A stretch of 64,000 bases of DNA from a virus (IMGVR_UViG_3300028833_000067:112888-176887), one strand, 5' to 3'. Shown: positions 29,239-51,024, counted from the first letter of the stretch. Numbers and translations: made by a program. The notes: generated by a model from the sequence alone, not told the origin.

Positions 29239-29240
29239 AT

Positions 29241-29843: not shown

Positions 29844-29847
29844 CTTG

Positions 29848-29967
29848 TAGACGTATCAGCAATCTTCTTTTGCATGTGAGAGCCCGTCAAGTGTTGGTTC
29901 AACTCCAACCCTCCCAACAGTTGGGAGGTCGCTCAATTGGCAGAAGCGCGGTTATAAGTACGTCTAG
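29848..29967 (+). ncRNA. CAGCA-family RNA copy 2 with permuted tRNA-like (YrlA-like) domain
   Basis: TAGACGTA/TACGTCTA helix, CAGCAA; T arm, then loop-closed acceptor stem, then D arm. Confidence 0.7.
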
Positions 29968-29973
29968 TTTTAT

Positions 29974-30046
29974 CGCACCTAGGACAAACAGTTAAGTCAC
30001 GGCGCTCATAACGCTTGAGGAATCGGTGCAACTCCGATAGGTGCTA
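29974..30046 (+). tRNA. tRNA-Met(CAT), possibly initiator-like
   Basis: Loop CTCATAA; C1:U72 mismatch; T loop TGCAACT. Confidence 0.7.
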
Positions 30047-30129
30047 CTCTCACCTTAGCAAAAGCGGTGACTAAACCGATGTGCGGCTAGCAACCTACTG
30101 CTATTTGGTGTATAAAGGAGGATGAATGA

Positions 30130-31833
30130 GTGAGAGCAGCAGTTTATAGTGGCACACGCAACATTTACGATAAAATGTTAATTGCGGCAAAATCTTTACT
30201 TATGCATTCAAATGTGGAAAAAATATATTTTCTTATTGAAGATGATTAGTATCCGTATGAGTTGCCAGAAGAAATAGAATGTATGAATATTAGCGGTCAA
30301 ACTTATTTTCCTAGTAGCGGCCCTAATTTTAATAATGTATGTACTTATATGGTATTAATTAGAGCCGCATATTCTAAAATATTTCCAGAATTAGATCGTA
30401 TTTTAAGTATTGACATGGATACCGTTGTTAATGAAAATATATCTGATTTATGGGATTTAGATTTAACAGATTATTATTTGGCCGCGGTTGAAGAATAGGA
30501 ACTATCAGAAAAAGAAGGCTCCTATATCAATATGGGTGTGGCAATGTTAAATCTAAAAAAAATTCGTGAAGATAAAAAAGATGATGAATTAATTAGTTCT
30601 TTAAATAATTATTGGTATAGATATAAAGAACAAGATTGTTTCAATGAAGTTTTTCGTGGAAATATTTTAATTTTACCAAGTGATTATAATGCGTGTATTT
30701 AGGCGGCTCCACCCAAACATGAGAAGATTACTCATTTTGCTGGACATTATGAATTAAATAAATTTCCTCATTTTAATTATTATAAAGAATTACCCATAGC
30801 TGAACTATAGAGAAATGTTCCAACACCAGTTACTTTAGATATTATTATTCCAACATATAAAAATAAAAAAGGATTAAGACGAACATTAAATTCTATTCCT
30901 TCTAATCCAAATGTTAATGTAATAGTAGTTGATGATGCATCAGAGTTAGATTATTCTGATATATTAATAGATTATCCTCAATTACATTTTTATTCATTAT
31001 CAATTAATCAAGGGCCAGGTATGGCTCGACAATATGGATTAGAACACAGTAATGGAATGTATATTACATTCCTTGATACTGGTGATTATTTTTATGAAAA
31101 TGGACTTCAAACTATATTAAATGCTATTAATGAAAATACATACATTAAACTATATACATTTTCTTATGTATATGATGATAGGAATATATTAAGTGATAGG
31201 CCAGATGATAAAACTATTGGGTCGGTATATAAACGTTCTTTTATTGAAATGTATAATATTCATTTTAGTAAAGAAGGTTCATACGCTAATGAGGATTATG
31301 GTTTTAGTCGTGCTTGTAAATTAATTTTAGATTAGTGGGAAAGATACCATTTTTCAGATGCTAGAAAGCATATAAAAATACCAGTATTTTATGAGCATAT
31401 TGATTCTCATTCTTTAACAAAAGCAAATAATGATGAATTTTTCTTTACCAAATTAAGTCCAGGAATTATTACAAATGGGATTCACGCAATCAATATCGCG
31501 CGAAAAGCGGGCATTAAAGAAGAATATTTAATAGAAGAATATAATTATATTATGGCTCAAGAATATTTCTTCTTTTTATGTATAATATAGGAACGTCCAG
31601 ATTTAGCTGATGATATATGGACAGTGATACGTAATTATTATTTAAATTGTTATCGTACGTATGAAAAATTTGCTTTACGAAATTTATCTACTTATTTCTC
31701 TTAGGTTAGTTTACCAAGAATTCGTAGTAGAATGAAGCGCTGGCCAAAAAATATTTCTTTTAATATTATGCGCTTTATTAAAGAATTACAAAATGAAGAA
31801 TTTACCCCAATTAGATATTTGACTTTAAATTAA
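30130..31833 (+). CDS. Fused glycosyltransferase GT8 + GT2
   Basis: ORFs 30262 and 31021 in frame via TAG; GT8 SIDMD, YINMGV, EQDCFN; GT2 IIIPTY, VVDD, FLDTGD. Confidence 0.8.
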
Positions 31834-31960
31834 ATTTAATGTATAATTATTATGTTGAGAGGGAGAAATTCCTCTTATATGGGTAGCGTTGGAGTCATGA
31901 CCAACGAGGTGAAGATGCTCCTATCATCGGCCATAATTTTAATTCATAGGAGGAATTATT

Positions 31961-32566
31961 ATGAGTAGAGCAGAAGATGTAAGTAATTATCGTAGAAGAA
32001 GAAAACAAAATCTTATTGAGGTTTTGGGTGGAAAATGTTAGATATGTGGTTTTGATTTATTTGCAGATGCATTAGAATTTCATCATGAAGACCCGACTAA
32101 AAAAGATTATGGAATTTCTTCAAAAGGGACTTGCCATGATATTGAAACTGACCTGAATGAAGTAAAAAAATGTTTTTTATTGTGTGCAAATTGTCATAGA
32201 GGAGTTCATAGTGGTTATTATGATGCTCCTACAGAACATATATTCAATAATGAATTAGCGCAAAGATTAATTAATGAACGCAATGATAAAATGACTGCTA
32301 AATTAAATTATTGTATTGATTGTCATTGTCAAATAGACTCTACAGCAACTCGCTGTCCAAGTTGTGCAGCAAAAGCCAGACGAGTTTGTGAAAGACCTTC
32401 ACGAGAAGAATTAAAGAAATTAATTCGCACATTACCATTTACTCAAATTGGAGAACATTTTGGCGTTAGAGATAATACAATACGTAAATGGTGTGATAAT
32501 ATGAATTTACCAAAAACTAAAAAAGAAATTAATTCTTACTCTGATGAAGAATGGGAAAAAATTTAA
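31961..32566 (+). CDS. HNH endonuclease with Zn-ribbon/HTH C-terminus
   Basis: AGGAGG RBS; KC(TAG=Q)ICG...LEFHH...LLCANCHRGVH. Confidence 0.8.
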
Positions 32567-32569
32567 TTT

Positions 32570-32598
32570 TTGACTTTCTTACAAAAATATACTATAAT
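32570..32598 (+). promoter_or_regulatory. sigmaA-type promoter
   Basis: TTGACT-N17-TATAAT. Confidence 0.6.
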
Positions 32599-32617
32599 AT
32601 ATTTGTAAGAAAGGTAT

Positions 32618-32735
32618 GGGAGATTCGCTAATCGGAATAGCACGCGGCTGGCCTGATACCAAAGAGATATAATAGGGGCAGGTCCTATATCAGACAATTA
32701 ACCGCGCCAGAGAGGTTCAACTCCTCTATCTCCCG
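32618..32735 (+). tRNA. tRNA-Asn(GTT) with a 47-nt insertion (32651-32697) in the anticodon loop
   Basis: Acceptor GGGAGAT/ATCTCCC + G73; D arm GCTA/TAGC; stem CGCGG/CCGCG; CTG|insert|TTAA; T arm AGAGG-TTCAACT-CCTCT. Confidence 0.75.
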
Positions 32736-32830
32736 CTCGTGCTTTGATGACCAAATGTAGCTTGGCAGTAAATAAACATTAATGCAGATGTGGGGTTATG
32801 ATGAAAGCCTTTACCTTAAAAGGCTATTAT

Positions 32831-32905
32831 GCCCTATTGGACAATCGGTTAAGTCACGTGCCCTTCAAGCACGAGGGCCCGGATCATCCCCGGGATAGGG
32901 TACCA
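32831..32905 (+). tRNA. tRNA-Glu(TTC), atypical T loop
   Basis: GCCCTAT/ATAGGGT-A-CCA; CGTGC-CCTTCAA-GCACG; T loop ATCATCC. Confidence 0.75.
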
Positions 32906-33161
32906 TTCAACCACATAAAGCCTGAATTGACAGGATATGACTGGCCAGTTGAGGTCTGGCGGCATACCCAGTGTGGACTTGTTGAAGCATTGGATATGTG
33001 TCTCGTGAGCGATGACAGCCGTGGTGAGGCAACTATGCCAAAAGAGTGATACTAAAATAGTAAGTGTGTGGAAAGGATGGATTCCCACTAACCTACGGGT
33101 AGCGCCCGCTTAGTCATTTAGTAGCACACTATAATAAAAAGACAACGAAAGTAAGTGGGTC

Positions 33162-33225
33162 AGGCGCATACAGCAAATTCTTATAAGATATTGATAATAT
33201 TTATGGCTACATTATTTGCGCCTAG
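33162..33225 (+). ncRNA. CAGCA-family RNA copy 3 (Ile-GAU anticodon-loop mimic)
   Basis: AGGCGCA/TGCGCCT helix, CAGCAA, AGATA-TTGATAA-TATTT. Confidence 0.55.
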
Positions 33226-33833
33226 TATTTTTGGTAGTATGCTAGAGCCATCGCGAGGAGAGTTATCTATAACATCCTACGTTCTACCATATGAGATGGC
33301 CACCGCCCCTGCGCTTCGGAAAGCGGTATATAAATTGGAGTAGGGCCACCCGCTATAGGGGATGGAGAAATATGTAGCTTGCGCTTTCGATGCACAGTGG
33401 CAGTAGCAAGTAAAAAATAGACCATCTGGCCGTGCAATAGAGCAGTAAAGTGTACGTTAAAGAATCGGATTCTGCTATGGGTTGTGTTTAATGAGCACGA
33501 TCTTCGTATATACTACGATCTCCAGTATGAGGAAAAACTACCGTTTGGATTGGTTGTAAGGCCATGGTCCACCCCTACGCCGGACACCGCTGAGACGTGC
33601 AGCAACCGCGCCGTAGATGAGTTTCTCTTGACTCTGGGATGTTCCCTAAATAAGAGCGGGATGAATATCCCGCAAATGGTCCCCGAGACAGTAAAGCTGG
33701 CGTTTCTAGAGCGCAAAGATAGTTCGCATACGGGGTTACATACTATCATAAGTACAGGAGCGATGAGCAGTTATTTCGCTTAATATTCGACTAGACCATG
33801 GACGCATGGCGGACAAATCCTGTATTTTTCTAT

Positions 33834-33916
33834 GCCCAAGTGGCGTAACGGCAGCCGCCAGGGACTTAAAATCCCTTGCTCGTATGAGCGTGCCGGTTCG
33901 AATCCGGCCTTGGGCA
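33834..33916 (+). tRNA. tRNA-Leu(TAA)
   Basis: Cloverleaf with long variable arm; loop CTTAAAA. Confidence 0.88.
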
Positions 33917-33966
33917 CTTTCCATTAGGTGGAGCTTGGAACCTACCGCCTTTTGGCTGTGATGTAC

Positions 33967-33996
33967 GGGACGTCATAATTTGGCGTCCCTATTTTT
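33967..33996 (+). terminator. Intrinsic terminator
   Basis: GGGACGTCA...TGGCGTCCC followed by TATTTTT. Confidence 0.65.
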
Positions 33997-34018
33997 AAAT
34001 CAAAAAGGAGGAATTTTT

Positions 34019-34393
34019 ATGAAGAAATTTATCGCACTACTAATAACTTTTATGCTATGTTTTTCTTTAACTTATGCAGAATAGACTGAAGACGTAATAA
34101 GTAAACCGCATTCTGAAACCGTAACAGTTCTGGCACCAAAAGGTGATTGGAGCGTAACCATCACTTCATCCTTAGATGGAAAAGAAAGTGTTATATCTGG
34201 TACAGAAGTAACTTTAACTGCGCACTTTTCTGGCAAGCGTGAAGGCGATACTTTACAGTATATTTGGCAAGAGCGCAAGAGTGAAAACGATAAGTGGAAG
34301 GAAATTGGTACAGATTCTACCGAATATAAATTTAATATTACAGCTGAAAATGTAACACATCAATGGCGAGTAATAGTTCGTGTGACTTGGTAA
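34019..34393 (+). CDS. Secreted Ig-like domain protein
   Basis: Signal peptide MKKFIALLITFMLCFSLTYAE; VTLTAH...YIWQ...W..I; one TAG. Confidence 0.7.
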
Positions 34394-34406
34394 GGAAGGT
34401 GGGAGT

Positions 34407-35720
34407 ATGAAGAAACTCATAGCATTCCTTTTATGCTTCCTACTAGGCTCCGTAAGCTATGCAGAAGAGTTAATTACTTCTGAATTATTTTTTACTAATA
34501 TACATATAATTCCAACATCGAATTATGTAGTAAAATAGTCTAATTTAAATGATTTTAGTATAGTAGCGTTACAAGATGCTACTATACAAGGTCATATTCG
34601 TGGCTCTCTTTGGGTTGGGGGAACTTTAAGAAGTGCTGATTGGATATTTGTAGATGATGGGTCTATCAATCATTCAGGCGCGAAAACCAGTTATATTTAT
34701 AACAATGAGTCCTCAATCCAATTTAAAAGTAGAACTAGCGAGCAGAGTAAATACGCATATAATGGATTAACAGATGAGGCGGTACATAAGACTACTAATT
34801 ATTGGATAAATATACTTGATAAATTAAAAGAGAGTAATTGTGTTTATATTGAGCCAGATAGTAATGGACATGCTGATATTGTAGGTTGGTCGACGCCTGG
34901 TATTACGCAATATCAGGCGCAGGGAAATGATGAAACAAAACAATCAAGTAATATTGTATATTGGACTGATGCTACATCAGTAACAATTGCAGGAATTATT
35001 GGGTTCGTTATAGCGCCAAAAGCAAATATAATAATACAATCTTCTAATAATAGAATTTCTGTAGTAGGTAAGACAGTAACAGTTAATTGGGCGGAATTAC
35101 ATGTAAATTATGGTATTCCTAATATTCCTACCCCAACTCCGTCTCCTACTCCAACTCTATCTCCTACCCCGACTCCAACTACAACTGCAACGCCTACTGC
35201 AACACCTACTTAGACATTTACTCCAACGCCTAAAATAACTAATAGTCCATCGCCAACTCCTACTAATAAAATACCAAGCCCAATATTAACTCCAGTTATT
35301 ACAATAGTAACAATTGTTACTTATACTCCATAGCCTAAAATTACTCCAACACCTACTACAACTTTAGTTAAAACAAATACACCACGACCAAGTTTAATTC
35401 CATTAACTCCAACTCCAACCCCAACTCCTAAAATTACTATAACTCCAACACCAACCCATACATCAACTCCTAAGATTACAAATACTCCATCTAATACTCC
35501 TATTATAACACCCAAACCAACCCCAACTTTTACCCCAAAAAAGACTCCATCTACACCTACTATTATACCTACTTCTACTCCTACCCCTACTATAACGCCT
35601 ACTATTGATCCAAAACGGATTCCAAAAAGACCTGGCATACCAATTCATATTATTAATGAATATGATACGCCACTAGGTTTAGAAATTATAATAAATCATG
35701 TAGGAGATTGTTTTGATTAA
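34407..35720 (+). CDS. Secreted surface protein: beta-rich N-domain, Thr/Pro mucin-like stalk, C-terminal YDTPLG...HVGDCFD motif
   Basis: Signal peptide [20 protein letters not shown]; PT repeats ~35125-35610; several TAG. Confidence 0.7.
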
Positions 35721-35842
35721 TGTATTTTATTATTCATACTTTGCTTGAAACAGATATAGGCTTAATTTTAGTAGGGCTTTTAATATTTATAGGACTAGTA
35801 GTAGAATTTTTAGATAACAATAATAATAGACCACAATTTTAA
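35720..35842 (+). CDS. Small membrane peptide
   Basis: TAATG coupling; single hydrophobic helix. Confidence 0.45.
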   Translation: MYFIIHTLLETDIGLILVGLLIFIGLVVEFLDNNNNRPQF

Positions 35843-35845
35843 TAT

Positions 35846-35874
35846 TTGACTTATAATAAAAATTTTGTTATAAT
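35846..35874 (+). promoter_or_regulatory. sigmaA-type promoter
   Basis: TTGACT-N17-TATAAT with TG extension. Confidence 0.65.
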
Positions 35875-36001
35875 ATTTATGTTGAAAGGGAAACTGAGTA
35901 AAAGTCCTTTACAGTTTGGCGCCATCCCAGTTAGGACTCTAAACTGAACTGTTGTAAGACCGCCGCCCAGCTTAGGGGATGTAAAATATACTAAGCAATA
36001 T

Positions 36002-36074
36002 GCTTCCATAGCTCAACTGGCAGAGCAATACTCTTGTAAAGTATAGGTTGTAAGTTCGATTCTTACTGGGAGCT
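36002..36074 (+). tRNA. tRNA-Thr(TGT)
   Basis: Cloverleaf; loop CTTGTAA. Confidence 0.88.
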
Positions 36075-36326
36075 CTATACCAACGGACAAGGCTTTGGCG
36101 CATGACAATATCAGCGAAGAGGGAGCGTAAGCGTTATTAACCTATAAGTGATATTGAACAGGGCGGTGGGACGCGAGTGGTTGGTAATTTATAGCAGAAG
36201 GCGCGGCAGTATAGCACCCTGAAAGGACAAAACCATTACAATATTCTGCTTATTATATGGAACTAATCTATCCGGAGTTCCTGCGGTTCAAGGATAGGGT
36301 TTGCGGCACCTTAGACCGCATCATAT

Positions 36327-36400
36327 GCCTCTCTAATCCAACTGGAAGAGATAGCACGCTTAGAACGTGTACAGTGTAAGTTCAAATCTTACGAGAGGTA
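36327..36400 (+). tRNA. tRNA with TAG (Leu) anticodon, short variable loop
   Basis: GCACG-CTTAGAA-CGTGT; 5-nt variable region; A73. Confidence 0.8.
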
Positions 36401-36620
36401 CGATTGTTGTTCAGCTGACAACCCAGTGGATGGATTTGACGCATCCCGTGCTACTACTGCGAGAGGGTTCACGCCTAGGCTTTGCATGCGGACCACGGCC
36501 CATGAAGGTAGCACATTATATCATCTCTCTTGGCGTATGGCAAGACCGAAAGGATAGAAGCTTGGGTTGGTACCAGATTCCGTTATAACAAGAGCCCACG
36601 GGAAAGAGATGGTAATATTA

Positions 36621-36693
36621 CTCTCCGTAAGCTAACTGGATAAACTCCAACGCTACGAACGTTGCATTGAAGGATCGTACCCTTCCGGGGAGA
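36621..36693 (+). tRNA. tRNA-Arg(ACG), atypical T loop
   Basis: CAACG-CTACGAA-CGTTG; T loop ATCGTAC. Confidence 0.8.
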
Positions 36694-36736
36694 CTTCGCG
36701 CGAAAAGCGCAAATTCATTTTGGAGGTACCTATAAT

Positions 36737-37276
36737 ATGAATGAACCAAGACTAAAGATTCTTCCCCCATGGACGATTCTAGTAAGGAAGCTAGAGGCTC
36801 TATTTGATGGTGACCCTCAGATTGCTTTCAATGTTGACTTTAGCGGCGAGCATCCATCTGTTGTTCTTTCCTGTAATAATGGAGACAAAGTTGCTGCACT
36901 AATGCAGATTCTACCTGAAGAAATTAACTTTGGCAATGTTACATTAAAGGTAATGGTTGATGGCACGCCTAGCAATCGCGCCTTTAAGAGCAAGGTTGAA
37001 CTATTTAGTACTGCTTTTGCTAAGAATCCTGCCTATGCGTATTCTGTATGCCCCGCAGAAGAGGGCTATCAGTGGATTGGTACTACTTATGTTGTATTTA
37101 ATAATTGTGTAGTACAGTTCGCGGCTGATAATCTAAATGACTGTCATGGAGTAATTAGTACTCTATATGAGACAATTGCCAGCGAGCTTCTAACTGGACC
37201 CGCAACTGAAGGTGTATTCTTTAATACTAATGTTGAACGCGCGGGACTTGGGATGCCGCTTGGGGAGTGGCCGTAA
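36737..37276 (+). CDS. Hypothetical protein
   Basis: GGAGG RBS; 179 aa; no TAG. Confidence 0.75.
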   Translation: MNEPRLKILPPWTILVRKLEALFDGDPQIAFNVDFSGEHPSVVLSCNNGDKVAALMQILPEEINFGNVTLKVMVDGTPSNRAFKSKVELFSTAFAKNPAYAYSVCPAEEGYQWIGTTYVVFNNCVVQFAADNLNDCHGVISTLYETIASELLTGPATEGVFFNTNVERAGLGMPLGEWP

Positions 37277-37569
37277 TTTAATATTTTGAGAATAGGTGCT
37301 TTCGTAACGAATCAAGGATATGGTAAGAGTGCAGTTTGACGAGCTGTACCAAAAGACTTGGGCGCCAAAAGGCAGAAGTTAAATGGTATTGAAAACCAGC
37401 CTATTCCGCCGAGATGTCGGTAGTAGCAAATATTCATACGCGAGTAAATGCAAACATCATAAATCCTACAATAGCCAGCGATAGCATGGACGCTATGGAC
37501 GCCCTTTAAAGTTGTTCGCGGTAGTGAGAATAACCTTCGCCGTGGCGAAGTAAAAGAGCCACGGAATAT

Positions 37570-37642
37570 GCGCCATTAGCTCATCTGGTAGAGCACAGCA
37601 CTTTTAATGCTGGCGTGCGGAGTCCGAGTCTCCGATGGCGCA
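37570..37642 (+). tRNA. tRNA-Lys(TTT)
   Basis: Cloverleaf; loop CTTTTAA. Confidence 0.88.
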
Positions 37643-37709
37643 CTAATAATTGACATTAAATAAAATTTATAGTATAATTATTTCAGTAAGAAGGAAAGGA
37701 AGTAAGAAT

Positions 37710-37940
37710 ATGAGAGATCCAAATCGTATTGATAGGTTTTGTGATGAGCTTAAAGCGATTTGGCATCAAGTGCCAGATTGGCGCTTTGGGCAACTCATGG
37801 AAAATATGCTTAGTGCAAGGCTACAAGCAGTACAAAATCCCAATGGTTTCTTTTATACTGAAGATGAAGAATTGTTTGCCTTCTTTGAAAGCTATATAAA
37901 AGAAATTGTAAAAGATGGCAGACAAAATAAAGATTGGTAA
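37710..37940 (+). CDS. Small phage protein (MRDPNRID...PDWRFGQL family)
   Basis: Promoter 37650-37678; AGGA RBS. Confidence 0.7.
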   Translation: MRDPNRIDRFCDELKAIWHQVPDWRFGQLMENMLSARLQAVQNPNGFFYTEDEELFAFFESYIKEIVKDGRQNKDW

Positions 37941-38146
37941 TAACTAATCCACCTGACATGGCTGTGACTACAAGGCGCGGAAAGGTGGCGGCAATCTCTA
38001 GCCCAAGCAAGTTGAAACGATATACACCCTTGGGATGAAAGCTCAACACAGAGCAGAGCGAGATATAACGTGAGTTTTATATACATATGTATGTAGTCGG
38101 TCTCCCTGTGGCCCGTTACGTTATAGGTTGGCACAGGGGAAGCTTC

Positions 38147-38223
38147 CGGGCATTGGCGCAATCGGTTAGCGCGCAGACCTGATAAGTCTGAGGTTTCTGG
38201 TTCGATTCCAGAATGCCCGACCA
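38147..38223 (+). tRNA. tRNA-Ile(GAT)
   Basis: Cloverleaf; loop CTGATAA; CCA. Confidence 0.9.
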
Positions 38224-38313
38224 CCGAGGCGGGAAGCTCAAAGATACGTGGATGGCCAACACGGTCGTGCGAGTAAAATCCAGCGCAAATAGCCCGTAGG
38301 ATCCTCGGGCCAT

Positions 38314-38459
38314 AGGAGAATCATATAACGGTAGTATGGCGGTCTCCGGGGCGATAGTGTAAAGAACACACTAGGAAAGCAAGGACCTAGTAATTGAAGG
38401 GCAGTACTGAGGCGCTCCACCAAAAACCGTTCGTCCTGGTTCAAATCCAGGCTCTCTTG
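38314..38459 (+). tRNA. tRNA-Trp(CCA) interrupted by a 75-nt tRNA-like insert (38348-38422)
   Basis: AGGAGAA/CTCTCTT + G73; GCGGT-CTCC|insert|AAA-ACCGT; T arm CCTGG-TTCAAAT-CCAGG. Confidence 0.78.
38348..38422 (+). ncRNA. Nested degenerate tRNA-Ala-like RNA
   Basis: GGGGCG/CGCTCC-A-CCA with G3.U70; D arm GTGT/ACAC; stem CTAGG/CCTAG; weak T stem with GGCAGTA loop. Confidence 0.7.
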
Positions 38460-38463
38460 CTTA

Positions 38464-38527
38464 AAGACTCGTCAGCAACATTTTTCAAGCATCTAATTGT
38501 TAATTTGACTAGCTATAAACGAGTCTT
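38464..38527 (+). ncRNA. CAGCA-family RNA copy 4 (Asn-GUU anticodon-loop mimic)
   Basis: AAGACTCG/CGAGTCTT helix, CAGCAA, TCTAA-TTGTTAA-TTTGA. Confidence 0.55.
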
Positions 38528-38534
38528 GTTTTAT

Positions 38535-38608
38535 ACCCTACTACCCCAATTGGCAGAGGGAACTGACTCAAAATCAGTAAAGTCTCGGTCCGAATCCGAG
38601 GTGGGGTA
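38535..38608 (+). tRNA. tRNA with CAA (Leu) anticodon, short variable loop
   Basis: ACTGA-CTCAAAA-TCAGT; 5-nt variable region; A73. Confidence 0.8.
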
Positions 38609-39008
38609 CTATTTAAACCGAGTGTCTGGGGCCTTCTTCGCTCTTTTCCCAGCCGAAACGCACAAAGACTCCTGCGTCTGAGCGAGGCGGAAGTGGAGTT
38701 GCCGGGTTTACATCCCTGCGGTTTACCGGCTATTTTATACTTATCTGATTTAAGCCCAGTATACTAAAGCGATATAACTTTTATGGGCTTCGTGCAATAA
38801 GATAAGTATTGCGCCAAGAGATTTAAAGGTTATGCATTGAGGCGCGCTGAGCGAGCTCCAGCTCACATTATTAAACAATTTATTGGAGCATGATTGGTGA
38901 ATAGAGTGCGATCGGTAACACTGTAAATAATTCCGGAAGTAATAGCACAGGTTAGAGTCGCCGGACCTCTGTTAATTGGGGCGAAAACACCATCCAAAGT
39001 GCTGTTAT

Positions 39009-39079
39009 GGGGATATAGTATAACAGTAAAACAGTAGCTTTGCAAGCTTCAGACCGGGGAGCGTCACCCCGTATCTCCA
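39009..39079 (+). tRNA. tRNA-Ala(TGC), atypical T loop
   Basis: GGGGATA/TATCTCC with G3.U70; loop TTTGCAA; T loop AGCGTCA. Confidence 0.8.
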
Positions 39080-39100
39080 CTTCATTTAGGAGGACTATAT

Positions 39101-39397
39101 ATGAAATATAAAGTAATTACATTATGTGGTTCAACGCGCTTTAAGGAAGATTTTGAACGTATTAATCGAGAACTTACACTTTAGGGCAATATAGTAATTA
39201 GTGTTGGTTGTTTTGGCCATGCCGGAGATGTATTTACAGAAGAGTAGAAAGAAATGCTCGATGATATCCATAAGCGTAAGATTGATATGGCTGATGAGAT
39301 CTTCGTTATTAATAAAGGTAAATATATTGGCACAAGTACCCGTAATGAAATTGAATATGCAATTTTGCATGATAAACCAGTGAGGTATATGGAATAA
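39101..39397 (+). CDS. DUF4406/nucleoside deoxyribosyltransferase-like fold protein
   Basis: ITLCGSTRFK...ELTL(Q)GNIVIS...HKRKIDMADEIFVIN...YIG.ST..EI; two TAG. Confidence 0.7.
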
Positions 39398-39422
39398 TTT
39401 ATATCAGATGGAGTTGATGTGT

Positions 39423-39728
39423 ATGCGTAATCGTGCAGAAAAGCGTCATAATGATTGGAAAAAGGCTATTCGTAAGCGTCGTATTGATCGAGAAACGCAA
39501 GGTACTTCTTTATTTTCCCATGATACTTTTGAATATTTACATCAATATTCTAAAGGGCATTGGGCTTGTGGTTGTGGCATGTGTAAACGATATAATAAGA
39601 CCAATAATCGTGGACGGAAACGGAAAATTCATGGTAATTATGCGCCATCTAAAAATTGGTCAGTACAAGATGAACGCCGTATCGAAGAAATGGAAGATCA
39701 AATACTTGACAATGAACAAGATTTCTGA
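39423..39728 (+). CDS. Basic hypothetical protein with CxCxxC
   Basis: GGAG RBS; ORF track. Confidence 0.65.
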   Translation: MRNRAEKRHNDWKKAIRKRRIDRETQGTSLFSHDTFEYLHQYSKGHWACGCGMCKRYNKTNNRGRKRKIHGNYAPSKNWSVQDERRIEEMEDQILDNEQDF

Positions 39729-39843
39729 TATAATTATTATAGAAAAAGGGAGATAAGATATACATAAGAGGCAACTTGATAGAGTTTGTTGCAAAACATT
39801 AAATAGTAAACATCTCCTTTCTCGCGGCGAAAGCCGCATTTAT

Positions 39844-39918
39844 CGGGGCGTAGCTCAGTTTGGCTAGAGCGGGTGGTTTGGGACCATCAGGTCGCGTGTT
39901 CGAATCGCGTCGCCCCGA
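39844..39918 (+). tRNA. tRNA-Pro(TGG)
   Basis: Canonical cloverleaf; loop TTTGGGA. Confidence 0.9.
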
Positions 39919-39922
39919 CTTA

Positions 39923-39987
39923 TAGGCCATTACAGCATAATCATATTTAAATGGAAAGAATAATTGCATATTATTAAAATGGCCTAG
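39923..39987 (+). ncRNA. CAGCA-family RNA copy 5 (Cys-GCA-like loop)
   Basis: TAGGCCATT/AATGGCCTA helix, CAGCAT, AATAA-TTGCATA-TTATT. Confidence 0.5.
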
Positions 39988-40104
39988 TATTTAAATATTC
40001 GCGCTTCGGCGTAAATAGATTACCGCGTTGGGATCCGTATAGGTGAAAAGCCCTATTTGAAAGAGGCGGAGTAGTATCCGCAACTCTTCCGCGGCGTTTT
40101 TAAT

Positions 40105-40255
40105 TTAGAACTGTAGGCTTAGAAGCAGCCATCAGCTAAAGAGTTTTCTTTTCTCCATGCGTGCGAAATGTATTATGGGCTTACAATTATTTGTCCTATA
40201 AGTATGATGTGCGGTGGGTAATAGAAAAAGAAATTTGGCGTAATAGCACATCTAA
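40105..40255 (+). ncRNA. Mimic of the 23S rRNA L11-binding domain (H43/H44) with an inserted long hairpin
   Basis: TGTAGGCTTAGAAGCAGCCATCA..TAAAGAGT and GCGTAATAGC match the conserved 23S GTPase-associated centre; closed by TTAGA/TCTAA. Confidence 0.75.
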
Positions 40256-40270
40256 TTTTAAGGAGTATTT

Positions 40271-40447
40271 ATGGAAGATAAACTACATGAAGTTTATAAT
40301 TGTCTAAAAGTGATAGATATGATGCTTTATAAACATGCTTATGAACCAGAAACGGTAAAAGGATTTGAATCTACCTCTGATATGGCTAAATACTATAGAG
40401 AATTTCTTCATGTTATTCTTCCAGAGGAATATCAATATCAAAAATGA
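40271..40447 (+). CDS. Small hypothetical protein
   Basis: AGGAG RBS; 58 codons. Confidence 0.55.
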   Translation: MEDKLHEVYNCLKVIDMMLYKHAYEPETVKGFESTSDMAKYYREFLHVILPEEYQYQK

Positions 40448-40530
40448 CACTATGGCGGAATGGTAACGCACCAGATTGCTAATCTGCGGTTACTTAAAAG
40501 GGTATGCACGTTCGAGCCGTGCTAGTGTCG
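40446..40530 (+). tRNA. tRNA-Ser(GCT)
   Basis: Long variable arm; loop TTGCTAA; G73. Confidence 0.85.
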
Positions 40531-40532
40531 CT

Positions 40533-40681
40533 TTGCGGTGGCGGAAAAGGTGTAGACGCTAAACATTCATTAGGGTCCGCAGTGGTTCGATTCCACCTAC
40601 TCTAATTATGCGGTGGAGCAACAGAGTAAGAATGTGTAGGCATGAACGGATCTATGTGAGGTGCAAATCCTCACCCGCATT
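40533..40681 (+). ncRNA. tRNA-like RNA with an expanded anticodon arm
   Basis: TGCGG/CCGCA acceptor; type II D arm; T arm GTGAGG-TGCAAAT-CCTCAC; ~90-nt interior containing a second T arm. Confidence 0.55.
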
Positions 40682-40692
40682 TTATCTAGTAT

Positions 40693-40763
40693 TGGGGTGT
40701 AGCCAAGCGGCAAGGCACAGGACTTTGACTCCTGCATCGTTGGTTCAAATCCAACCACCCCAG
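40693..40763 (+). tRNA. tRNA-Gln(TTG)
   Basis: TGGGGTG/CACCCCA-G; loop CTTTGAC. Confidence 0.9.
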
Positions 40764-40820
40764 CTGATTCCGTATGTGTTGGTCCGATTCCAACAGGGAC
40801 TGCTTTTAGGAGGGATTATT

Positions 40821-41138
40821 ATGGATAAGAATGAAACTCCAATCTATGAAATTTATGTAATGAGTTATCCTTGGTATCTAGATGATAAAAAGATGCCAAA
40901 TTGTGGTATACGAGAACGAGTTGGGTTTTATTATGATAAAGAAGATGCTATCCGAGCGGTAGAAGAAAATTGGTGTGACTTGCAAGACCACTATGCCCAA
41001 GCCGCAGAGATTTGTAAAGTAGAACCCGGTCTTTATTCCGTTCCCTCTCGGCGCGAATATTGGTACTTTCTATGGAATCAAAAAGAAGAAAAATTTGAAA
41101 TTGCGCGGAAACCGAAGTTTGAAGGATGGGATTATTAA
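40821..41138 (+). CDS. Hypothetical protein
   Basis: AGGAGG RBS; true start lies downstream of the tRNAs within track ORF 40608. Confidence 0.7.
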   Translation: MDKNETPIYEIYVMSYPWYLDDKKMPNCGIRERVGFYYDKEDAIRAVEENWCDLQDHYAQAAEICKVEPGLYSVPSRREYWYFLWNQKEEKFEIARKPKFEGWDY

Positions 41139-42573: not shown

Positions 42574-42631
42574 ATTTGACTTTTAACTAAAATTAATGTA
42601 TAATTTTTATATAAGAAAAGGAGTTGATATT

Positions 42632-43099
42632 ATGCCGATTTTGTATATTCTCTGCGGACCGAGTGGATGCGGAAAAACTACCTGGGCTATGAATTTTATG
42701 AAAGAACATGATAATATTCATTATGTATCTCGGGATGAAATTCGTTTTGAATTGGTAAAACCCGATGAGAGTTATTTTTCGCGCGAAAAAGAAGTCTTTC
42801 GGTGCTTTGCTAATACCATTCGGCATACTCTTGTTGATGGCTTTGATTGTATTGCCGACGCCACTCACTTAAATGAATTTTCGCGTCGTAAGCTAACACA
42901 AGCAATTGATATGTATTTTAAAGATTATGAAATTGTTTATGTTAGTTTTAATGTAAGCGCAGATACATGTATTGAACATAACGCCAATCGTGAAGGCAGG
43001 GCGAATGTGCCTGAAACTGTAATTCGTAATATGTGCCGTGATTTTAGAACTCCTTCTATTGAAGAAGATGAACGTGTGAAAGAGGTAATTGAAGTATGA
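42632..43099 (+). CDS. P-loop polynucleotide kinase (AAA_33, Pnk-like)
   Basis: GPSGCGKTT, SRDEIR, DATHL...R motifs; promoter 42576-42604. Confidence 0.8.
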   Translation: MPILYILCGPSGCGKTTWAMNFMKEHDNIHYVSRDEIRFELVKPDESYFSREKEVFRCFANTIRHTLVDGFDCIADATHLNEFSRRKLTQAIDMYFKDYEIVYVSFNVSADTCIEHNANREGRANVPETVIRNMCRDFRTPSIEEDERVKEVIEV

Positions 43100-43716
43100 G
43101 CGAGATTTTCTTCACGAGTGATACTCATTTCGGGCACCAGCCCGAGTTCCTTTGGAAGCCTAGAGGTTTTTCTTCTGTAGAAGAAATGGATGAAGCCATT
43201 ATTGAAAATTGGAATAAAGTAGTAAAACAAGGAGATATAGTATATCATCTTGGAGATACTATGCTCAACGATAATGTACATGGACTTGAATGTTTCAAGC
43301 GGTTAAATGGACAGATTTTTCTTATCTACGGAAACCATGATACTAATGCTAGAAATAATTTGCTTTTTACAGATGACCGTACCATACATAAAATGCTCGG
43401 CGGCTGGTATGCTTGGCTTATTAAATATGGTAAACTTTCCATTTACATGAGCCACTATCCCACGCTTACAAGCAATTATGATCAGAAACACTTCAGCCAG
43501 CATGTACTGAGCCTTCACGGGCACACTCATCAGAAAACAAATTGGCTTGACCCGAAAAACCCCTTTCTTTATCATGTTGGCCTAGACTCCCATAATAATA
43601 CGCCAGTTCATATTGATGAAGTAATCACAGATATTCGTCAGCGTTGGGAAGAAATTGGGCGTCTGCCAGTACCAGTTCAGCCGCAAGATACTTATCCATA
43701 TACTTCTATTATTTGA
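43096..43716 (+). CDS. Calcineurin-like metallophosphoesterase
   Basis: SDTHFGH, LGD, GNHD, HGHTH. Confidence 0.88.
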   Translation: MSEIFFTSDTHFGHQPEFLWKPRGFSSVEEMDEAIIENWNKVVKQGDIVYHLGDTMLNDNVHGLECFKRLNGQIFLIYGNHDTNARNNLLFTDDRTIHKMLGGWYAWLIKYGKLSIYMSHYPTLTSNYDQKHFSQHVLSLHGHTHQKTNWLDPKNPFLYHVGLDSHNNTPVHIDEVITDIRQRWEEIGRLPVPVQPQDTYPYTSII

Positions 43717-43744
43717 CTTTATTTAAATCTATGGTATAATAATT

Positions 43745-43960
43745 ATGTTAGAAGATAATAAGTGCTTAATTGGGTCGCCATGTGAACATTGTATAAGTAG
43801 CTGTACATTTAGAATAAGAAAGGATAAAAATATGGAACAAGATAAACATCCATGTGATAATTGTCCACCTCCGCATATGTGCGGTCATTGTACTTTATGT
43901 GAAGAATGGGAAAAAACTCATCCTAAAAAAGAAATCAAAGAAAAATATGAATGGGAATAA
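43745..43960 (+). CDS. Cys-rich small protein
   Basis: ORF track; CxxC clusters. Confidence 0.45.
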   Translation: MLEDNKCLIGSPCEHCISSCTFRIRKDKNMEQDKHPCDNCPPPHMCGHCTLCEEWEKTHPKKEIKEKYEWE

Positions 43961-44002
43961 CCTACGGTCTTGATAAAGACTAAGATGAAAAGGAGAATGA
44001 AA

Positions 44003-45493
44003 ATGAACAAACTACTAAAGAATCTAAAAACTGAAACCAATTATACTCATACTGAAAATGGCGCCCTTACTCATAAGTCGACCCTTAATAAGGTGCTGGA
44101 TATGTTTGCTATGGGCGGTTCTATGCGGAATCGCTCGGACGATGACGTTATTAATATGTTCAAGCAGGCATACGAAGAGAATAAGACTCTCGCACTAAAG
44201 TGCCTCTTCTATATGCGCGATATACGTGGTGGCGCAGGCGAGAGACGTTTTTTCCGCATTTGCATCAAGTGGCTCGCTAATGAGTATCCAGAAGAGATGG
44301 AGCACCTAATTCCTTTCATTAGTGAATATGGCCGCTATGATGATCTTTTTGAGCTATTTGATACTCACTGCGAAGCCGCGATGATGGGATATATCTTTCA
44401 TGTTCTTAATAAGAATGAAGATCATCTTATTTATAAATGGATGCCTTCGATCAACGCATCTTCTAAAGAAAGCAAGATTCGTGGGCGTAAATTCGTGCGT
44501 GAATTTGGCATGACAGAGCGTCAGTATCGTCAGATGCTTTCTGAAGGTCGTAAAGCTTGCCATCTGGTTGAAACTCTTATGAGCCAGAATCAGTGGGATC
44601 AGATTGCGTTTGATCATCTGCCTTCTCGCGCAGGACTTCTTTATAAGAATGCCTTCATGCGCCGTGAAGAAACTAAAGAGCGCTATGCTGAATTTATGTC
44701 CCGCAAGGACGCTAAAGTAAATGCAAGTGTATTGAATCCTGTCGAAATCGCGCACCAGATTCTCAATACATGGCGCACTCCCTCTGCTACTGAACGTCAG
44801 GCTTGGCAGAAGTATTGGGATAATCTAAAAGATTATTACAATGGCCGCGAAGAGCCTGGCATCGCAGTAGTTGATGTAAGTGGTAGTATGAATGGCACTC
44901 CTATGGAAGCCGCAGTTTCTATGGGCGCGTATATTGCCGAACGTGGAAAAGGCCCGTTCCAGAACCACTTTATTACCTTTAGTGCTAATCCACAGCTTGT
45001 AGAATTCGAAGGCGTGGATATTTATGACAAGTTTAAGCGCGCAATAGAAGCAGACTGGGGACAGAATACGAACCTCGAAGCAGTATTTGATATGCTGCTG
45101 GAGACTGGTCTACGTAATCATGTGCCAGACGCTGAAATGCCTAAAACAATTTACATATTTTCAGATATGGAATTTGATGACGGCTTGACTTGCGGCGCAC
45201 GTACCACTGATCGTTGGGGACGCGTTCATTCGATGAATCGCTCACAGATTGATACACTCATTGAAGCCAAAACTAAAGAGTGGATGCGGGCAGGATATAC
45301 AGTACCAAGAGTAATCTTTTGGAATCTTGACGCTCGTCAGCCTAATATTCCAGCTATTGGCCCGGGGTTCTCTTATTGCAGTGGTTTCTCTATGAGTGCG
45401 CTTGAAGGAGTACTCTCTGGTAAAGATGGCGTCGAAATGATGCGAACTGTACTAGAAGGAGAGCGCTATGCGCCAATTTCTAGTGTTCTATAA
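44003..45493 (+). CDS. DUF2828 family TROVE-like + vWA protein (Ro60-related architecture)
   Basis: TENGA, RDIRGGAGER, YGRYDDL, KWMPS; vWA MIDAS DVSGSM, NTNL..VF, SDMEFD, IFWNL. Confidence 0.8.
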   Translation: MNKLLKNLKTETNYTHTENGALTHKSTLNKVLDMFAMGGSMRNRSDDDVINMFKQAYEENKTLALKCLFYMRDIRGGAGERRFFRICIKWLANEYPEEMEHLIPFISEYGRYDDLFELFDTHCEAAMMGYIFHVLNKNEDHLIYKWMPSINASSKESKIRGRKFVREFGMTERQYRQMLSEGRKACHLVETLMSQNQWDQIAFDHLPSRAGLLYKNAFMRREETKERYAEFMSRKDAKVNASVLNPVEIAHQILNTWRTPSATERQAWQKYWDNLKDYYNGREEPGIAVVDVSGSMNGTPMEAAVSMGAYIAERGKGPFQNHFITFSANPQLVEFEGVDIYDKFKRAIEADWGQNTNLEAVFDMLLETGLRNHVPDAEMPKTIYIFSDMEFDDGLTCGARTTDRWGRVHSMNRSQIDTLIEAKTKEWMRAGYTVPRVIFWNLDARQPNIPAIGPGFSYCSGFSMSALEGVLSGKDGVEMMRTVLEGERYAPISSVL

Positions 45494-45580
45494 ATTCTCT
45501 CTTTTTGAAAAGTCAAGCAACTTATTGCTTGACTTTTTTCTTAATTTCGAGTATAATTATTATAGTAAGGAGATGATAGT

Positions 45581-46480
45581 ATGTGGACAGAAGATGAAAT
45601 TTTAGCTATTCCAGATAAAGGCATAGATTGCCGAGGAATAACATATCAAAGAGTCTCTTTATCTTCTCGTATGGAAGATTAGAGCGGTATTATACATGGA
45701 CGTTTATTACCATTATTTCCGATATTAAAACCTAATACTAATAAAAAAGAATGGTTGTGCTTATGCTCATGTGGTAATATAAAAGTAGTAAATAGTTCTA
45801 ATCTAAAGTCTGAAAAAATTACTAGTTGTGGTTGTTTACGCTCTGAAACTACTGCCAATCATATTACTGCGATTAACCATGCTAGAAAAGAAGATTTTAC
45901 TGGTAGAACTATAAAAGACTTATATGTTTTAGAACTAGATAAGGAAATGTCATTTACTCATTCTCAAAATGGGTCAATACATTATTATTGGAAGTGTCAA
46001 TGTACTAATTGTAATAATATTATGTCATTACGCGTTGATACTCTAAAAGATACCAAAAGAGTTTATTGTCGTTTTTGTAATGCCACCAAGTCAGTAGGCG
46101 AAATATTAATTAGAAATCTATTATTACAGAATAATATTCCTTTTACAGAAGAACAAACATTTTCCAATTGTATTTTTCCAGACACTAAAGCTAAAGCTAA
46201 ATTTGATTTTTATGTCAATAATCAATATTTAATAGAGTATGATGGAACTCAACATTTTAGAGCCTCAAGTATGTTTCCTGATATTAGTAAAATTCAAGAA
46301 CATGATTATATAAAGAATTTATGGTGCTATCAGAATAATATACCACTAATTAGGATTCCGTATAGTCATGTAGAAAATATAAAAATAGAAGACTTACGGC
46401 TTGAGACAACTCAGTATAGAATGGAGTATGAAAATGGAAGATTTATTATCAAAAGTAAAGCAACATCACTTTATTGTTAA
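45581..46480 (+). CDS. Homing-type endonuclease (Cys clusters + PD-(D/E)XK/DUF559-like domain)
   Basis: WLCLCSCG...SCGC; FDFYV...IEYDGTQH...LIRIPY; extended through one TAG. Confidence 0.7.
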
Positions 46481-49806: not shown

Positions 49807-51024
49807 GTGAAAAATATGTTGAACGCAGCTTCTGAGCGCGAACTTGCTTATGTAGTAATTGTAGATGGAATTGAACCTATTCCTGGTTATGACCGCGTAG
49901 AACACGCAATTGTTGGCGGCTGGCGTGTAATTGTGCAGAAAGGCCAGTTTAAAGTGGGCGATCCCGCTATTTATTTTGAAATTGATTCTCGTGTTCCTTC
50001 TGATAAGGAATGTTTTGCTTTCCTTGAGAAGCGCAATTATAAAGTTAAGACTTTGAAGATGTGCAAAACTATTTCTCAGGGCTTGCTTATGCATCCCTCT
50101 GATTTTGGTTGGCATGTTACTCTTCAGGGTGAAATTGATGACGGGGAGCAGATTCATACTCCTGTAGATGAATCGCGCTTTCTTACTAAGCAGTTGGGTG
50201 TAACTTATGCAGATGAAGAAGATAATGCTCGTAAGGCTGCACCAGTTGATAAGTATAAGAAAATGGCTCAGCGGCATGCAGTTATCTTTAAAAAGCCTTG
50301 GGCACGTTGGATGATGCGTCGTGAATGGGGCCGTAAGATTATGTTTTTCTTCTTTGGTAAGAAGAAAGATAAGAAGAATGGATGGCCTTCTTGGGTACAA
50401 AAAACAGATGAAGAGAGAATAGAGAATATGCCTTTTGTGCTTCAGAATAAGCATCCTTGGATAGTTACTGAGAAATGCGATGGTTCCAGCACTACTTTCA
50501 CCATGAAACGTAGAAAGTTCAAAAAGAAAGATTTCTACGTTTGTTCTCGGAATGTTTGTTTTGATAGCGTAGATAAGCCTTGTTATTATGATACTAACAT
50601 TTATTGGGAAATGGCACAGAAATATCATATGTTTGAAGTTCTTTCACAGCTCCTTGATATTTTACCCGCGGCTGAATGGGTGACTATTCAGGGCGAAACT
50701 TATGGTGAAGGAGTTCAGCGTAATACTTATGGACTTAATGGTCATGATTTTATGGCTTTTAACTTGATTACTTCTGATAAAGGCCGCTGGAATAGTTGTG
50801 ATATGAAGGAGATCCTTGAAAAGGGTTACAATATTCCTTGCGTGCCTATTCTCAATGATAATTATATCCTTCCTGATACTGTAGAAGAACTTCGTGAATA
50901 TGTAAATAGCCAGCCTTCAGTTATTGATGGTGAGATGAAAGAAGGTATTGTATGCCGGTCTCCTGATGGTATTCATTCTTTCAAGTGCGTCTCTCCAGAG
51001 TACCTACTCAAATATCATAGCTAA
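49807..51024 (+). CDS. ATP-dependent RNA ligase (DRB0094/Rnl2-like, N-terminal OB domain)
   Basis: IEPIPGYDRVE; KTDEERIEN; motif I TEKCDGSS; QGETYG; FMAFN; EGIV; FKCVSPEYLL. Confidence 0.85.
   Translation: MKNMLNAASERELAYVVIVDGIEPIPGYDRVEHAIVGGWRVIVQKGQFKVGDPAIYFEIDSRVPSDKECFAFLEKRNYKVKTLKMCKTISQGLLMHPSDFGWHVTLQGEIDDGEQIHTPVDESRFLTKQLGVTYADEEDNARKAAPVDKYKKMAQRHAVIFKKPWARWMMRREWGRKIMFFFFGKKKDKKNGWPSWVQKTDEERIENMPFVLQNKHPWIVTEKCDGSSTTFTMKRRKFKKKDFYVCSRNVCFDSVDKPCYYDTNIYWEMAQKYHMFEVLSQLLDILPAAEWVTIQGETYGEGVQRNTYGLNGHDFMAFNLITSDKGRWNSCDMKEILEKGYNIPCVPILNDNYILPDTVEELREYVNSQPSVIDGEMKEGIVCRSPDGIHSFKCVSPEYLLKYHS

Follow-up and report, generated by a model that had tools for sequence, protein, structure and literature searches.

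The tRNA-Trp(CCA) gene on a 64,000-nt stretch of viral DNA (IMGVR_UViG_3300028833_000067:112888-176887, here called the window) is split in its anticodon loop, between positions 35 and 36, by an insert of exactly 75 nt (38348-38422). The coordinates and boundaries of this insertion are confirmed as exact. We read the 75-mer as an intron at the RNA level, that is, as a mobile element without an open reading frame (ORF) that imitates a tRNA top half and would derive from a phage tRNA-Ala gene, be cut out by tRNA nucleases and leave exon halves to be sealed by a ligase; the chances of this composite reading appear to us about even. Inserts of the same architecture interrupt tRNA genes of related phages, and very probably they are removed at the RNA level. 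A complete pathway of RNase P, a 3' tRNA nuclease and an RNA ligase is an evenly poised proposal. The generalization that gut and rumen phages possess a further kind of tRNA intron, a mobile top-half mimic cut by RNase P and a 3' nuclease and rejoined by a repair ligase, is put forward slightly more tentatively.

The source record comprises 176,887 bp, its genes form long frames only if TAG is read as sense, and its sequence is present in sequencing runs from sheep and cattle gut. The size of the genome and the TAG recoding had suggested a crAss-like phage, but this affiliation was not established. The interrupted gene lies in a tRNA cluster at about 27.8-40.8 kb of the window. ARAGORN reports no tRNA in the unspliced region (38314-38459) at default thresholds, and deletion of the 75 nt gives, at the same thresholds, a 72-nt tRNA-Trp(CCA) with the anticodon loop CUCCAAA. 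An earlier note on this DNA, made from the sequence alone, had correctly described the two halves as intact. Uninterrupted tRNA-Trp genes in two relatives (L028:12024-12080 and L004:8485-8541, sequence ...GGTCTCCAAAACCG...) are 91% identical to the spliced gene of the window, and their empty site is reproduced by the 35|36 junction only, other junctions failing. The existence of intronless orthologues marks the 75 nt as a discrete insertion with presence/absence polymorphism. The same insert is found in the tRNA-Trp of another relative (L002), where it is 97% identical and differs at 2 of 75 positions; the exons there differ from those of the window at 14 of 71 positions, yet fold as tRNA-Trp. 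Such a pattern would be expected if the intron had spread laterally into diverged alleles and the exons had stayed under selection; it is short of proof, both detection methods favouring intact exons. The assembly artefact for which the earlier note had allowed is unlikely: in other samples, assembled independently, the insert (L002) or a copy with 90% identity (L030/L032) is also present.

The insert reads GGGGCGA-UA-GUGU-AAAGA-ACAC-A-CUAGG-AAAGCAAGGA-CCUAG-UAAUU-GAAG-GGCAGUA-CUGAG-GCGCUCC-A-CCA. Its acceptor (GGGGCGA/GCGCUCC) forms 6 of 7 pairs, including G3.U70, and is followed by a D-like stem (GUGU/ACAC), a 5-bp stem in the middle (CUAGG/CCUAG) with the 10-nt loop AAAGCAAGGA, a T-like hairpin and a 3' end of A73-CCA that falls exactly at 38422. 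The anatomy proposed earlier, from the GGGGCG start through G3.U70, D arm, 10-nt loop and degenerate T stem to the A-CCA end, agrees with the sequence and with our parse, as does the remark that the boundaries of the insert correspond to mature tRNA ends (+1 and NCCA of an acceptor helix). The description as a tRNA inside a tRNA holds for the ancestry of the insert and fails for its present state. With a 10-nt loop and 3 of 5 T pairs, the 75-mer is no working tRNA. Taken alone, it is not called by ARAGORN and has no standalone match to Rfam RF00005 at E up to 10; the sole RF00005 match touching it is a 16.9-bit hybrid with the T arm of tRNA-Trp.

The three closest copies of the 75-mer served to build a covariance model (R1), which also matches, at 30 bits, the standalone tRNA-Ala(UGC) genes of two relatives (L026 and L031), which have G3.U70, A73 and an odd T-loop similar to that of the insert. 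In view of these matches and of the window's own tRNA-Ala(UGC), the 75-mer is therefore a tRNA-Ala derivative, as had been suspected, and the window gene (39009-39079) appears to be of the kind that gave rise to it. With G3.U70, A73 and CCA, the 75-mer might be a minihelix chargeable by alanyl-tRNA synthetase. The Ala determinant cannot be maintained as a feature of the intron type, though. Relatives have G3-C70 with G73 (L030, L014) or A3-U70 (L010), and position 3 of the acceptor helix shows five pair types across the family, so that G3.U70 is not conserved and alanylation is therefore no family feature.

The family was delimited by an unbiased scan of 70 related phage loci (1.23 Mb), in which the structure of the insert played no part. 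All deletions of 30-135 nt whose product closes a 7-nt loop with a 5-bp stem were considered (1.22 million candidates), a candidate was kept if ARAGORN accepts the product, boundaries were taken from the loop of the closest intronless tRNA, and tandem-tRNA artefacts were removed from the output. This brute-force approach was used instead of BLAST with half-tRNAs, which missed several members. The scan returned 33 distinct, independently bounded inserts, most of them with the NCCA ends that the earlier note had suggested looking for in phage genomes. Together with six further ones spotted by eye, there are 39 inserts in 10 tRNA species (Asn, Gln, Glu, Ile, Leu, Lys, Pro, Thr, Trp and Val). They measure 43-117 nt, with a cluster at 43-50 nt, and the insertion points in the host anticodon loop are 32|33, 34|35, 35|36 and 36|37 (1, 3, 4 or 5 loop nt before the insert).

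All 33 bounded inserts restore the canonical 7-nt loop exactly. All of them can also be parsed into a 7-nt strand from the first base, a variable middle, a hairpin with 5 bp and a 7-nt loop, an abutting complementary 7-nt strand and a short tail, and the six by-eye inserts have the same top-half parse by inspection. The top-half test is passed by 29/33 and 33/33 inserts, compared with 0.9-3.1% of length-matched random segments; when at least 6 acceptor and at least 3 T pairs are demanded, the figures are 33/33 and 3.1%. The acceptor-like helix has 6.73 of 7 pairs (shuffled-partner mean 3.72, maximum 4.58 in 2000 shuffles) and the T stem 4.58 of 5 (mean 2.97, maximum 3.58, again in 2000 shuffles), with 4-8 base combinations at each acceptor position. 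At one Leu site, for example, the helix begins with ACUCGGU, GGUCGGU or AGCAGGU, and the partner strand matches each time. The middle between acceptor strand and T arm measures 11-14 nt in the members of 43-50 nt, and none of the 39 inserts, presented alone, is recognised as a tRNA by ARAGORN. As far as the comparison indicates, the conserved part is the top half alone, the module read by RNase P, RNase Z and the CCA-adding enzyme.

The T-loops of the inserts range from the canonical UUCAACU and UUCGAUC to UGCAAGU and GGCAGCA, and the GGCAGCA type is shared with ordinary tRNAs of the phage clade. In many of these ordinary tRNAs a non-canonical GGCRGYA or GGCAGAA replaces UUCRANY (examples are L013:11555-11644, L034:17025-17099, L035:10762-10835 and L003:603-689), and ARAGORN tends to miss them.

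Relatives of the 75-mer also occupy other host genes. The copy with 90% identity is located in tRNA-Lys(UUU) of L030/L032 at 35|36 (R1 102.6 bits), a 73-nt relative in tRNA-Lys of L014 at 36|37 (R1 61.8 bits), and a 47-nt miniature in tRNA-Lys of L045 at 34|35 (R1 16.1 bits, E=0.79). All of these start with GGGGC and end with NCCA. The occurrence of near-identical or related inserts in different host tRNAs identifies what is, by all sequence indications, a mobile element. The 75-mer itself is a regular member of the family, with a helix from its first base, a short tail at the 3' junction and homologues in other tRNAs.

A second member is present in the window, in tRNA-Asn. ARAGORN with the -i option misread the region 32618-32736 as Thr(GGU) with a 47-nt intron; intronless relatives read CUGUUAA, and the gene is therefore tRNA-Asn(GUU). 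The intron is shared with L004/L028 at 98% identity. In several Asn genes, the exons match intronless alleles without a difference, and the introns have diverged from one another beyond easy alignment, with the helices kept by compensatory change. The tRNA-Trp gene was missed by ARAGORN -i at default; with -ps90 the intron was misplaced, giving Leu(CAA), and with -ps80 the output was swamped by false positives. In a default ARAGORN run of the window, tRNA-Trp, tRNA-Asn and an amber suppressor discussed below are all absent from the calls. There is no second Trp or Asn tRNA in the whole phage genome, and 42 of 43 split tRNA genes have no intact gene with the same anticodon in the same locus. 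The host genes of the inserts thus look functional from their sequences, with the caveat that both detection methods favour intact exons.

These data bear on the alternative that the insertions are inert or destructive, so that a mobile tRNA-like element is never removed and the outer tRNA is dead, looking intact because the event is recent. Such a view can draw on the L002 comparison, in which the low divergence of the introns relative to the exons suggests recent lateral spread, and on the acceptor stem of the window tRNA-Trp, which has a mismatch at A7.C66 and pairs G2 with U71, whereas both positions are perfect pairs in the intronless allele. Moreover, tRNA content varies among these phages, so that the loss of one tRNA would be tolerable, and metatranscriptome contigs (see below) gave no proof of splicing. 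However, it would not be expected that all 33 bounded inserts restore the loop exactly, that nearly all split genes lack an intact counterpart in the locus, or that Asn introns are deeply diverged with compensatory changes while the exons are identical to functional alleles. The shrinkage of the inserts to a nuclease-recognition module also argues for selection on excision, again with the reservation that detection favours intact exons. We consider inert insertion quite improbable.

Regarding the preferred reading of the inserts as introns, the 5' junction is informative. In every clade insert it is the first base (+1) of the acceptor helix, whatever the position in the host loop. As the +1 junction is constant while the host position varies, the junctions are set by the insert's own top half and not by the host tRNA. 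A constant +1 junction is what excision by tRNA-end nucleases, above all RNase P, would predict. Bacterial RNase P cleaves acceptor/T-arm minihelices, cuts at +1 and pairs with RCCA, its minimal substrate being the acceptor and T arm with RCCA. It leaves 3'-OH and 5'-P ends, and ATP-dependent RNA ligases join such ends. The architecture of the inserts appears compatible with that of an RNase P substrate, and this enzyme probably makes the 5' cut.

From the insertion, the intronless alleles, the architecture, the covariation and the 5' junction rule, we infer splicing by the following enzymatic steps. After transcription of the tRNA cluster, host RNase P would bind the acceptor/T-arm helix of the intron and cut at +1, so that the 5' exon ends at C35 with a 3'-OH. 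A 3' tRNA-processing endonuclease, for which an RNase Z/BN-type enzyme is a candidate, would cut after the CCA of the intron and leave a 5'-phosphate on A36. The exon halves would be held together by the acceptor, D and T arms of tRNA-Trp, until an ATP-dependent RNA ligase seals the nick in the anticodon loop; the candidate for this step is the phage Rnl5-type enzyme (49807-51024). The phage genome contains no archaeal-type splicing endonuclease (PF01974) and no RNase Z-like gene, and host enzymes would therefore be needed for cutting.

Several observations weigh against this pathway; they concern the 3' ends, the structure of the 75-mer, the transcripts and the ligase. An automated tally of the 33 bounded inserts gives the 3' tails ACCA (16), GCCA (4), NCAA (3), CC (2) and tails of 1-2 nt (8, including that of the window Asn intron). 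The two CC tails belong to ambiguous Leu boundaries and can be read as ACCA, so that 23-25 of the 33 tails have 4 nt. The 4-nt tails are ACCA, GCCA, ACAA and GCAA, the short ones AA, AT, AC and A, and TCCA and ACTA occur among the six by-eye inserts. Some RNase Z/BN enzymes have been reported to cut after CCA, but we know of no 3' nuclease rule that fits both the 4-nt and the 1-2 nt tails, nor of one that would also yield a cut at 74|75 on tails without CCA. The idea that tRNA-maturation nucleases excise the insert, already present in the earlier note, thus agrees with the 5' junctions, and is in difficulty with the short tails of about a quarter of the inserts. Of the ordinary tRNA genes of the clade, 41% encode CCA; NCCA is present in about 60% of the inserts. 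The excess is modest, and CCA was rejected as a strong intron-specific signal. In the 75-mer itself, the T-like hairpin UGAAG-GGCAGUA-CUGAG, with its 7-nt loop, is weak, and the elbow residues that are canonical in D and T loops are missing.

For the transcripts, two sheep-rumen metatranscriptome runs and two DNA runs (Logan contigs) were compared with positions 27300-41000 of the window. The one relevant joint in the contigs connects 27874 to 28050 and skips the 175-nt intron of the suppressor tRNA; it is seen in the DNA runs as well, and therefore reflects intronless strains and not splicing. No Trp or Asn joint was among those listed, which is uninformative either way, the comparison being confined to contigs. 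One contig from an RNA run carries the Asn intron unspliced.

As regards the ligase, the ORF starting at 49807 combines an N-terminal OB domain (PF21189, residues 14-95) with PF09414 (residues 217-402) and matches the Naegleria RNA ligase (PDB 5cot, E=1.2e-30). It is, on this evidence, an Rnl5-type RNA ligase homologous to NgrRnl and DraRnl, and a candidate sealing enzyme. The published work on Rnl5-type ligases describes the sealing of nicks in duplexes and not in anticodon loops. The 405-aa ligase is found in only 10 of 29 relatives' genomes. Five complete insert-bearing genomes without it encode a shorter PF09414 protein, and four of the five also a T4 Rnl1-like ligase. Whole-genome scans of ten relatives preceded the tally of ligases and inserts. 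Among genomes at least 90% complete, inserts occur in 11 of 13 with an RNA ligase and in 2 of 7 without (one-sided Fisher p=0.022, uncorrected for phylogeny). Two genomes, G023 (100% complete) and G027 (92%), have inserts, yet no PF09414, PF09511, RtcB or PF01068 (ATP-dependent DNA ligase). Strict ligase dependence was rejected after these scans. The original suggestion of sealing by the 49807 enzyme is weakened by its Rnl5 type and by the relatives that use other ligases or have none recognisable; a phage ligase would be a plausible sealing enzyme, and not an obligatory one.

The repair genes lend themselves to another protein route, in which a dedicated endoribonuclease of host or phage would bind the tRNA-like helix or the enlarged loop and leaves 2',3'-cyclic phosphate and 5'-OH ends, kinase and phosphoesterase heal them and the ligase seals, or host RtcB joins the halves. 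The window holds a full heal-and-seal set (kinase, Metallophos_2 protein, RlaP-like nucleotidyltransferase and ligase), whereas the products of RNase P and RNase Z would need no healing. The variable 3' tails misfit the rules for RNase Z, and insert-bearing genomes without a ligase could make use of host RtcB, a family present in the Bacteroides control genome. Against this, the invariant 5' junction at helix +1 is the RNase P cut site, the junctions form no bulge-helix-bulge (BHB), and no candidate endonuclease was identified, the phage being devoid of the archaeal-type enzyme; the repair module could also be a mere defence against host anticodon nucleases. We regard such a route as unlikely. 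The RNA-repair-like block (42596-52633) also holds a DUF2828/DUF7788 (vWA) RNA-binding protein (PHROG 850) and a second Metallophos protein.

The 10-nt loop of the 75-mer, AAAGCAAGGR, is invariant in the window, L002, L030 and L014, while its stem covaries between CUAGG/CCUAG and UUUGG/CCAAA. This invariance hints that the insert may have a function beyond excision. It might even suggest that the inner RNA is the product, and the outer tRNA a scaffold that releases a CCA-ended top-half RNA, as a nuclease decoy or chargeable minihelix, with rejoining secondary or absent. The combination of G3.U70 and A73 in several members would suit such a role. However, most members keep a middle of 11-14 nt with no common loop motif, G3.U70 is not conserved, a free-standing gene would suffice at no cost in tRNA, and the exact restoration of the loop is left unexplained. 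The inner RNA as the product is thus very doubtful.

A self-splicing or self-cleaving ribozyme comes to mind because a true group I intron is present in the same cluster. It interrupts the amber suppressor tRNA, its 5' site is preceded by a U and its last base is G, and its score against RF00028 is 36.5 bits (E=4.8e-8 for a search of 281 nt), less than the gathering score of 50; an intronless suppressor allele (L053:3455-3539) is 100% identical to the spliced form. Default tRNA finders miss the split suppressor, which may explain 'missing' suppressors in TAG-recoded phages. Group I introns (RF00028), including that of the suppressor, resemble the 75-mer in their site in the anticodon loop, their presence or absence among relatives and the exact restoration of the loop. 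They depend, however, on a U at -1 that pairs with G in P1, on a G as the last base and on a catalytic core (P3-P9), which fills 175 nt even in the compact copy of the window. Group I identity of the 75-mer was rejected, as its 5' exon ends with C and the insert with A, it does not match RF00028, and it cannot self-splice. The small size of the insert, in a family that goes down to 43 nt, the lack of any match to an Rfam ribozyme or RF00028 at E up to 10 in 38300-39100, and a thermodynamic fold of the pre-tRNA no more stable than that of shuffles (z = -0.11) make a ribozyme of any kind hardly conceivable.

The BHB introns of Archaea and Eukarya, whose exons are joined by RtcB or Trl1, share with the proposed introns the protein-dependent removal, the ligation of halves, the small size and the lack of an ORF. 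In BHB introns two 3-nt bulges are 4 bp apart, whereas both junctions of the 75-mer are at one end of a 7-bp helix. BHB identity was rejected since the junctions flank the helix base (by inspection, 4 nt on the 5' and 7 nt on the 3' side) and PF01974, which matched four archaeal control genomes only, is absent from the phage genome.

In a search of the literature, tRNA introns of Lak megaphages were the sole description of such inserts, and no paper offered a mechanism. The Lak introns were called enigmatic, one of them, in tRNA-Thr(UGU), possibly encoding a tRNA (Devoto et al. 2019, Nat Microbiol, PMC6784885). They are likewise short, ORF-less inserts in the anticodon loop, in gut or rumen phages with an alternative genetic code (PMC6784885, Fig. 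4). Alleles with and without intron coexist, and the Lak intron is near-identical across cohorts. By inspection, the Lak tRNA-Tyr intron (PMC6784885, Table S6) has an acceptor-like helix abutting a TTCGAAT hairpin. The Lak paper contains no family architecture, junction rule, covariation or mechanism, and its boundaries come from the eukaryotic mode of tRNAscan. The phage lineage also differs (about 540 kb for Lak, about 177 kb here). The claim of a new intron type agrees with an insert that is neither group I nor BHB, and has to be qualified in that Lak introns that 'may encode a tRNA' were already published. A blastn search of the INPHARED phage records gave distant tRNA-Leu matches only.

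Embedded tRNA mimics with ends set by tRNA-end enzymes are known from mascRNA (MALAT1) and the tRNA-like RNA of the GUT15 intron (PMC6152437). These are eukaryotic; no joining of the flanking pieces follows, and the RNA that contains them is not a tRNA split in its anticodon. The Pnkp/Rnl1 system of T4 is similar in that a phage ligase seals a break in the anticodon loop and that kinase, phosphoesterase and ligase are encoded together. It repairs damage by host nucleases and removes no intron, and the ligase of the present phage is of Rnl5 (NgrRnl) type, not Rnl1.

The known tRNA introns are mainly self-splicing ribozymes, mostly group I, or BHB introns with a dedicated endonuclease, and bacteria and phages are not known to have any but the ribozyme kind. 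Splicing of tRNA by tRNA-trimming enzymes, as proposed here, would be without a demonstrated precedent, and the class is barely described. If the proposal is true, tRNA can be spliced by the joint action of ordinary maturation enzymes and an RNA-repair ligase, and protein- and RNase P-dependent tRNA splicing exists in the bacterial world. It would be a further solution to the intron problem, in which the conserved part is a handle for RNase P and 3' tRNA nucleases. Phage RNA ligases and repair modules would gain a housekeeping role beyond countering anticodon nucleases. The proposal would also account for tRNAs that are missed by annotation pipelines. Recoded phages often seem to be without a suppressor tRNA (PMC7886860), and missed split tRNAs would help to explain this puzzle. 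As to origin, repair ligases may have stitched tRNA-like RNAs into broken anticodon loops. The inserts may persist because they destroy the target sites of PD-(D/E)XK homing endonucleases that invade the same loops.

Features of the window, with positions counted from its first letter
Feature	Position	Strand	Details and evidence
Amber suppressor tRNA(CUA), long variable region	27842-28104		split at 35|36 by 175-nt group I intron 27875-28049
tRNA-Asn(GUU) 5' exon	32618..32650	+	intronless relatives read CTGTTAA, e.g. L010:3922-3993
47-nt predicted tRNA-top-half intron of tRNA-Asn, 34|35	32651..32697	+	parse GCCUGAU...AUAGG-GGCAGGU-CCUAU-AUCAGAC-AA
tRNA-Asn(GUU) 3' exon	32698..32736	+	ARAGORN, intronless relatives
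tRNA-Trp(CCA) 5' exon	38314..38347	+	34 nt, positions 1-35, 3' end ...CUCC; ARAGORN on spliced sequence; intronless orthologues
75-nt tRNA-Ala-derived insert in tRNA-Trp	38348..38422	+	sequence, L002/L030 alignment and consensus fold, model R1, top-half parse
tRNA-Trp(CCA) 3' exon	38423..38459	+	37 nt, positions 36-73, begins AAAACCG, CCA not encoded
Standalone tRNA-Ala(UGC)	39009..39079	+	G3.U70, A73, odd T-loop AGCGUCA, CCA not encoded; Rfam RF00005 46.1 bits
P-loop kinase (AAA_33, polynucleotide-kinase-like), end-healing candidate	42596..43099	+	PF13671 E=9.5e-22
Calcineurin-type phosphoesterase adjoining kinase, end-healing candidate	43096..43716	+	PF12850 E=2.1e-9 (Metallophos_2)
RlaP-like nucleotidyltransferase	46401-47201		
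ATP-dependent RNA ligase, Rnl5 (Naegleria NgrRnl) type	49807..51024	+	PF21189 + PF09414; PDB 5cot; PHROG 968

Relatives have longer inserts of about 470-490 nt, absent from the window, in the anticodon loops of their Arg, Thr, Pro, Asn and Asp tRNAs (L004:5908-6386, L028:9447-9925, L020:7291-7784, L024:4511-4996, L049:5584-6055, L061:1201-1676 and L066:12878-13348). They consist almost wholly of an ORF of about 143 aa of a PD-(D/E)XK homing endonuclease family (PF11645, E=5e-17, for the L004 copy only), and a ribozyme would not fit in them.

The tRNA clusters also contain other structured RNAs. Inside that of the window, a cow-rumen-4 RNA is located at 27398-27464 (57.6 bits, which exceeds the gathering score) and a cow-rumen-3-like RNA at 33479-33573 (79.2 bits, just below it); the depth of contigs from the RNA runs peaks at about 32.8-33.7 kb of the window. 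There is no ROOL RNA in the window at the gathering score. ROOL RNAs (RF03087, 325-346 bits) are present in the tRNA clusters of relatives (L015:6797-7381, L016:5892-6475 and L055:12743-13316), and a drum RNA lies inside a tRNA cluster at L015:6308-6401.

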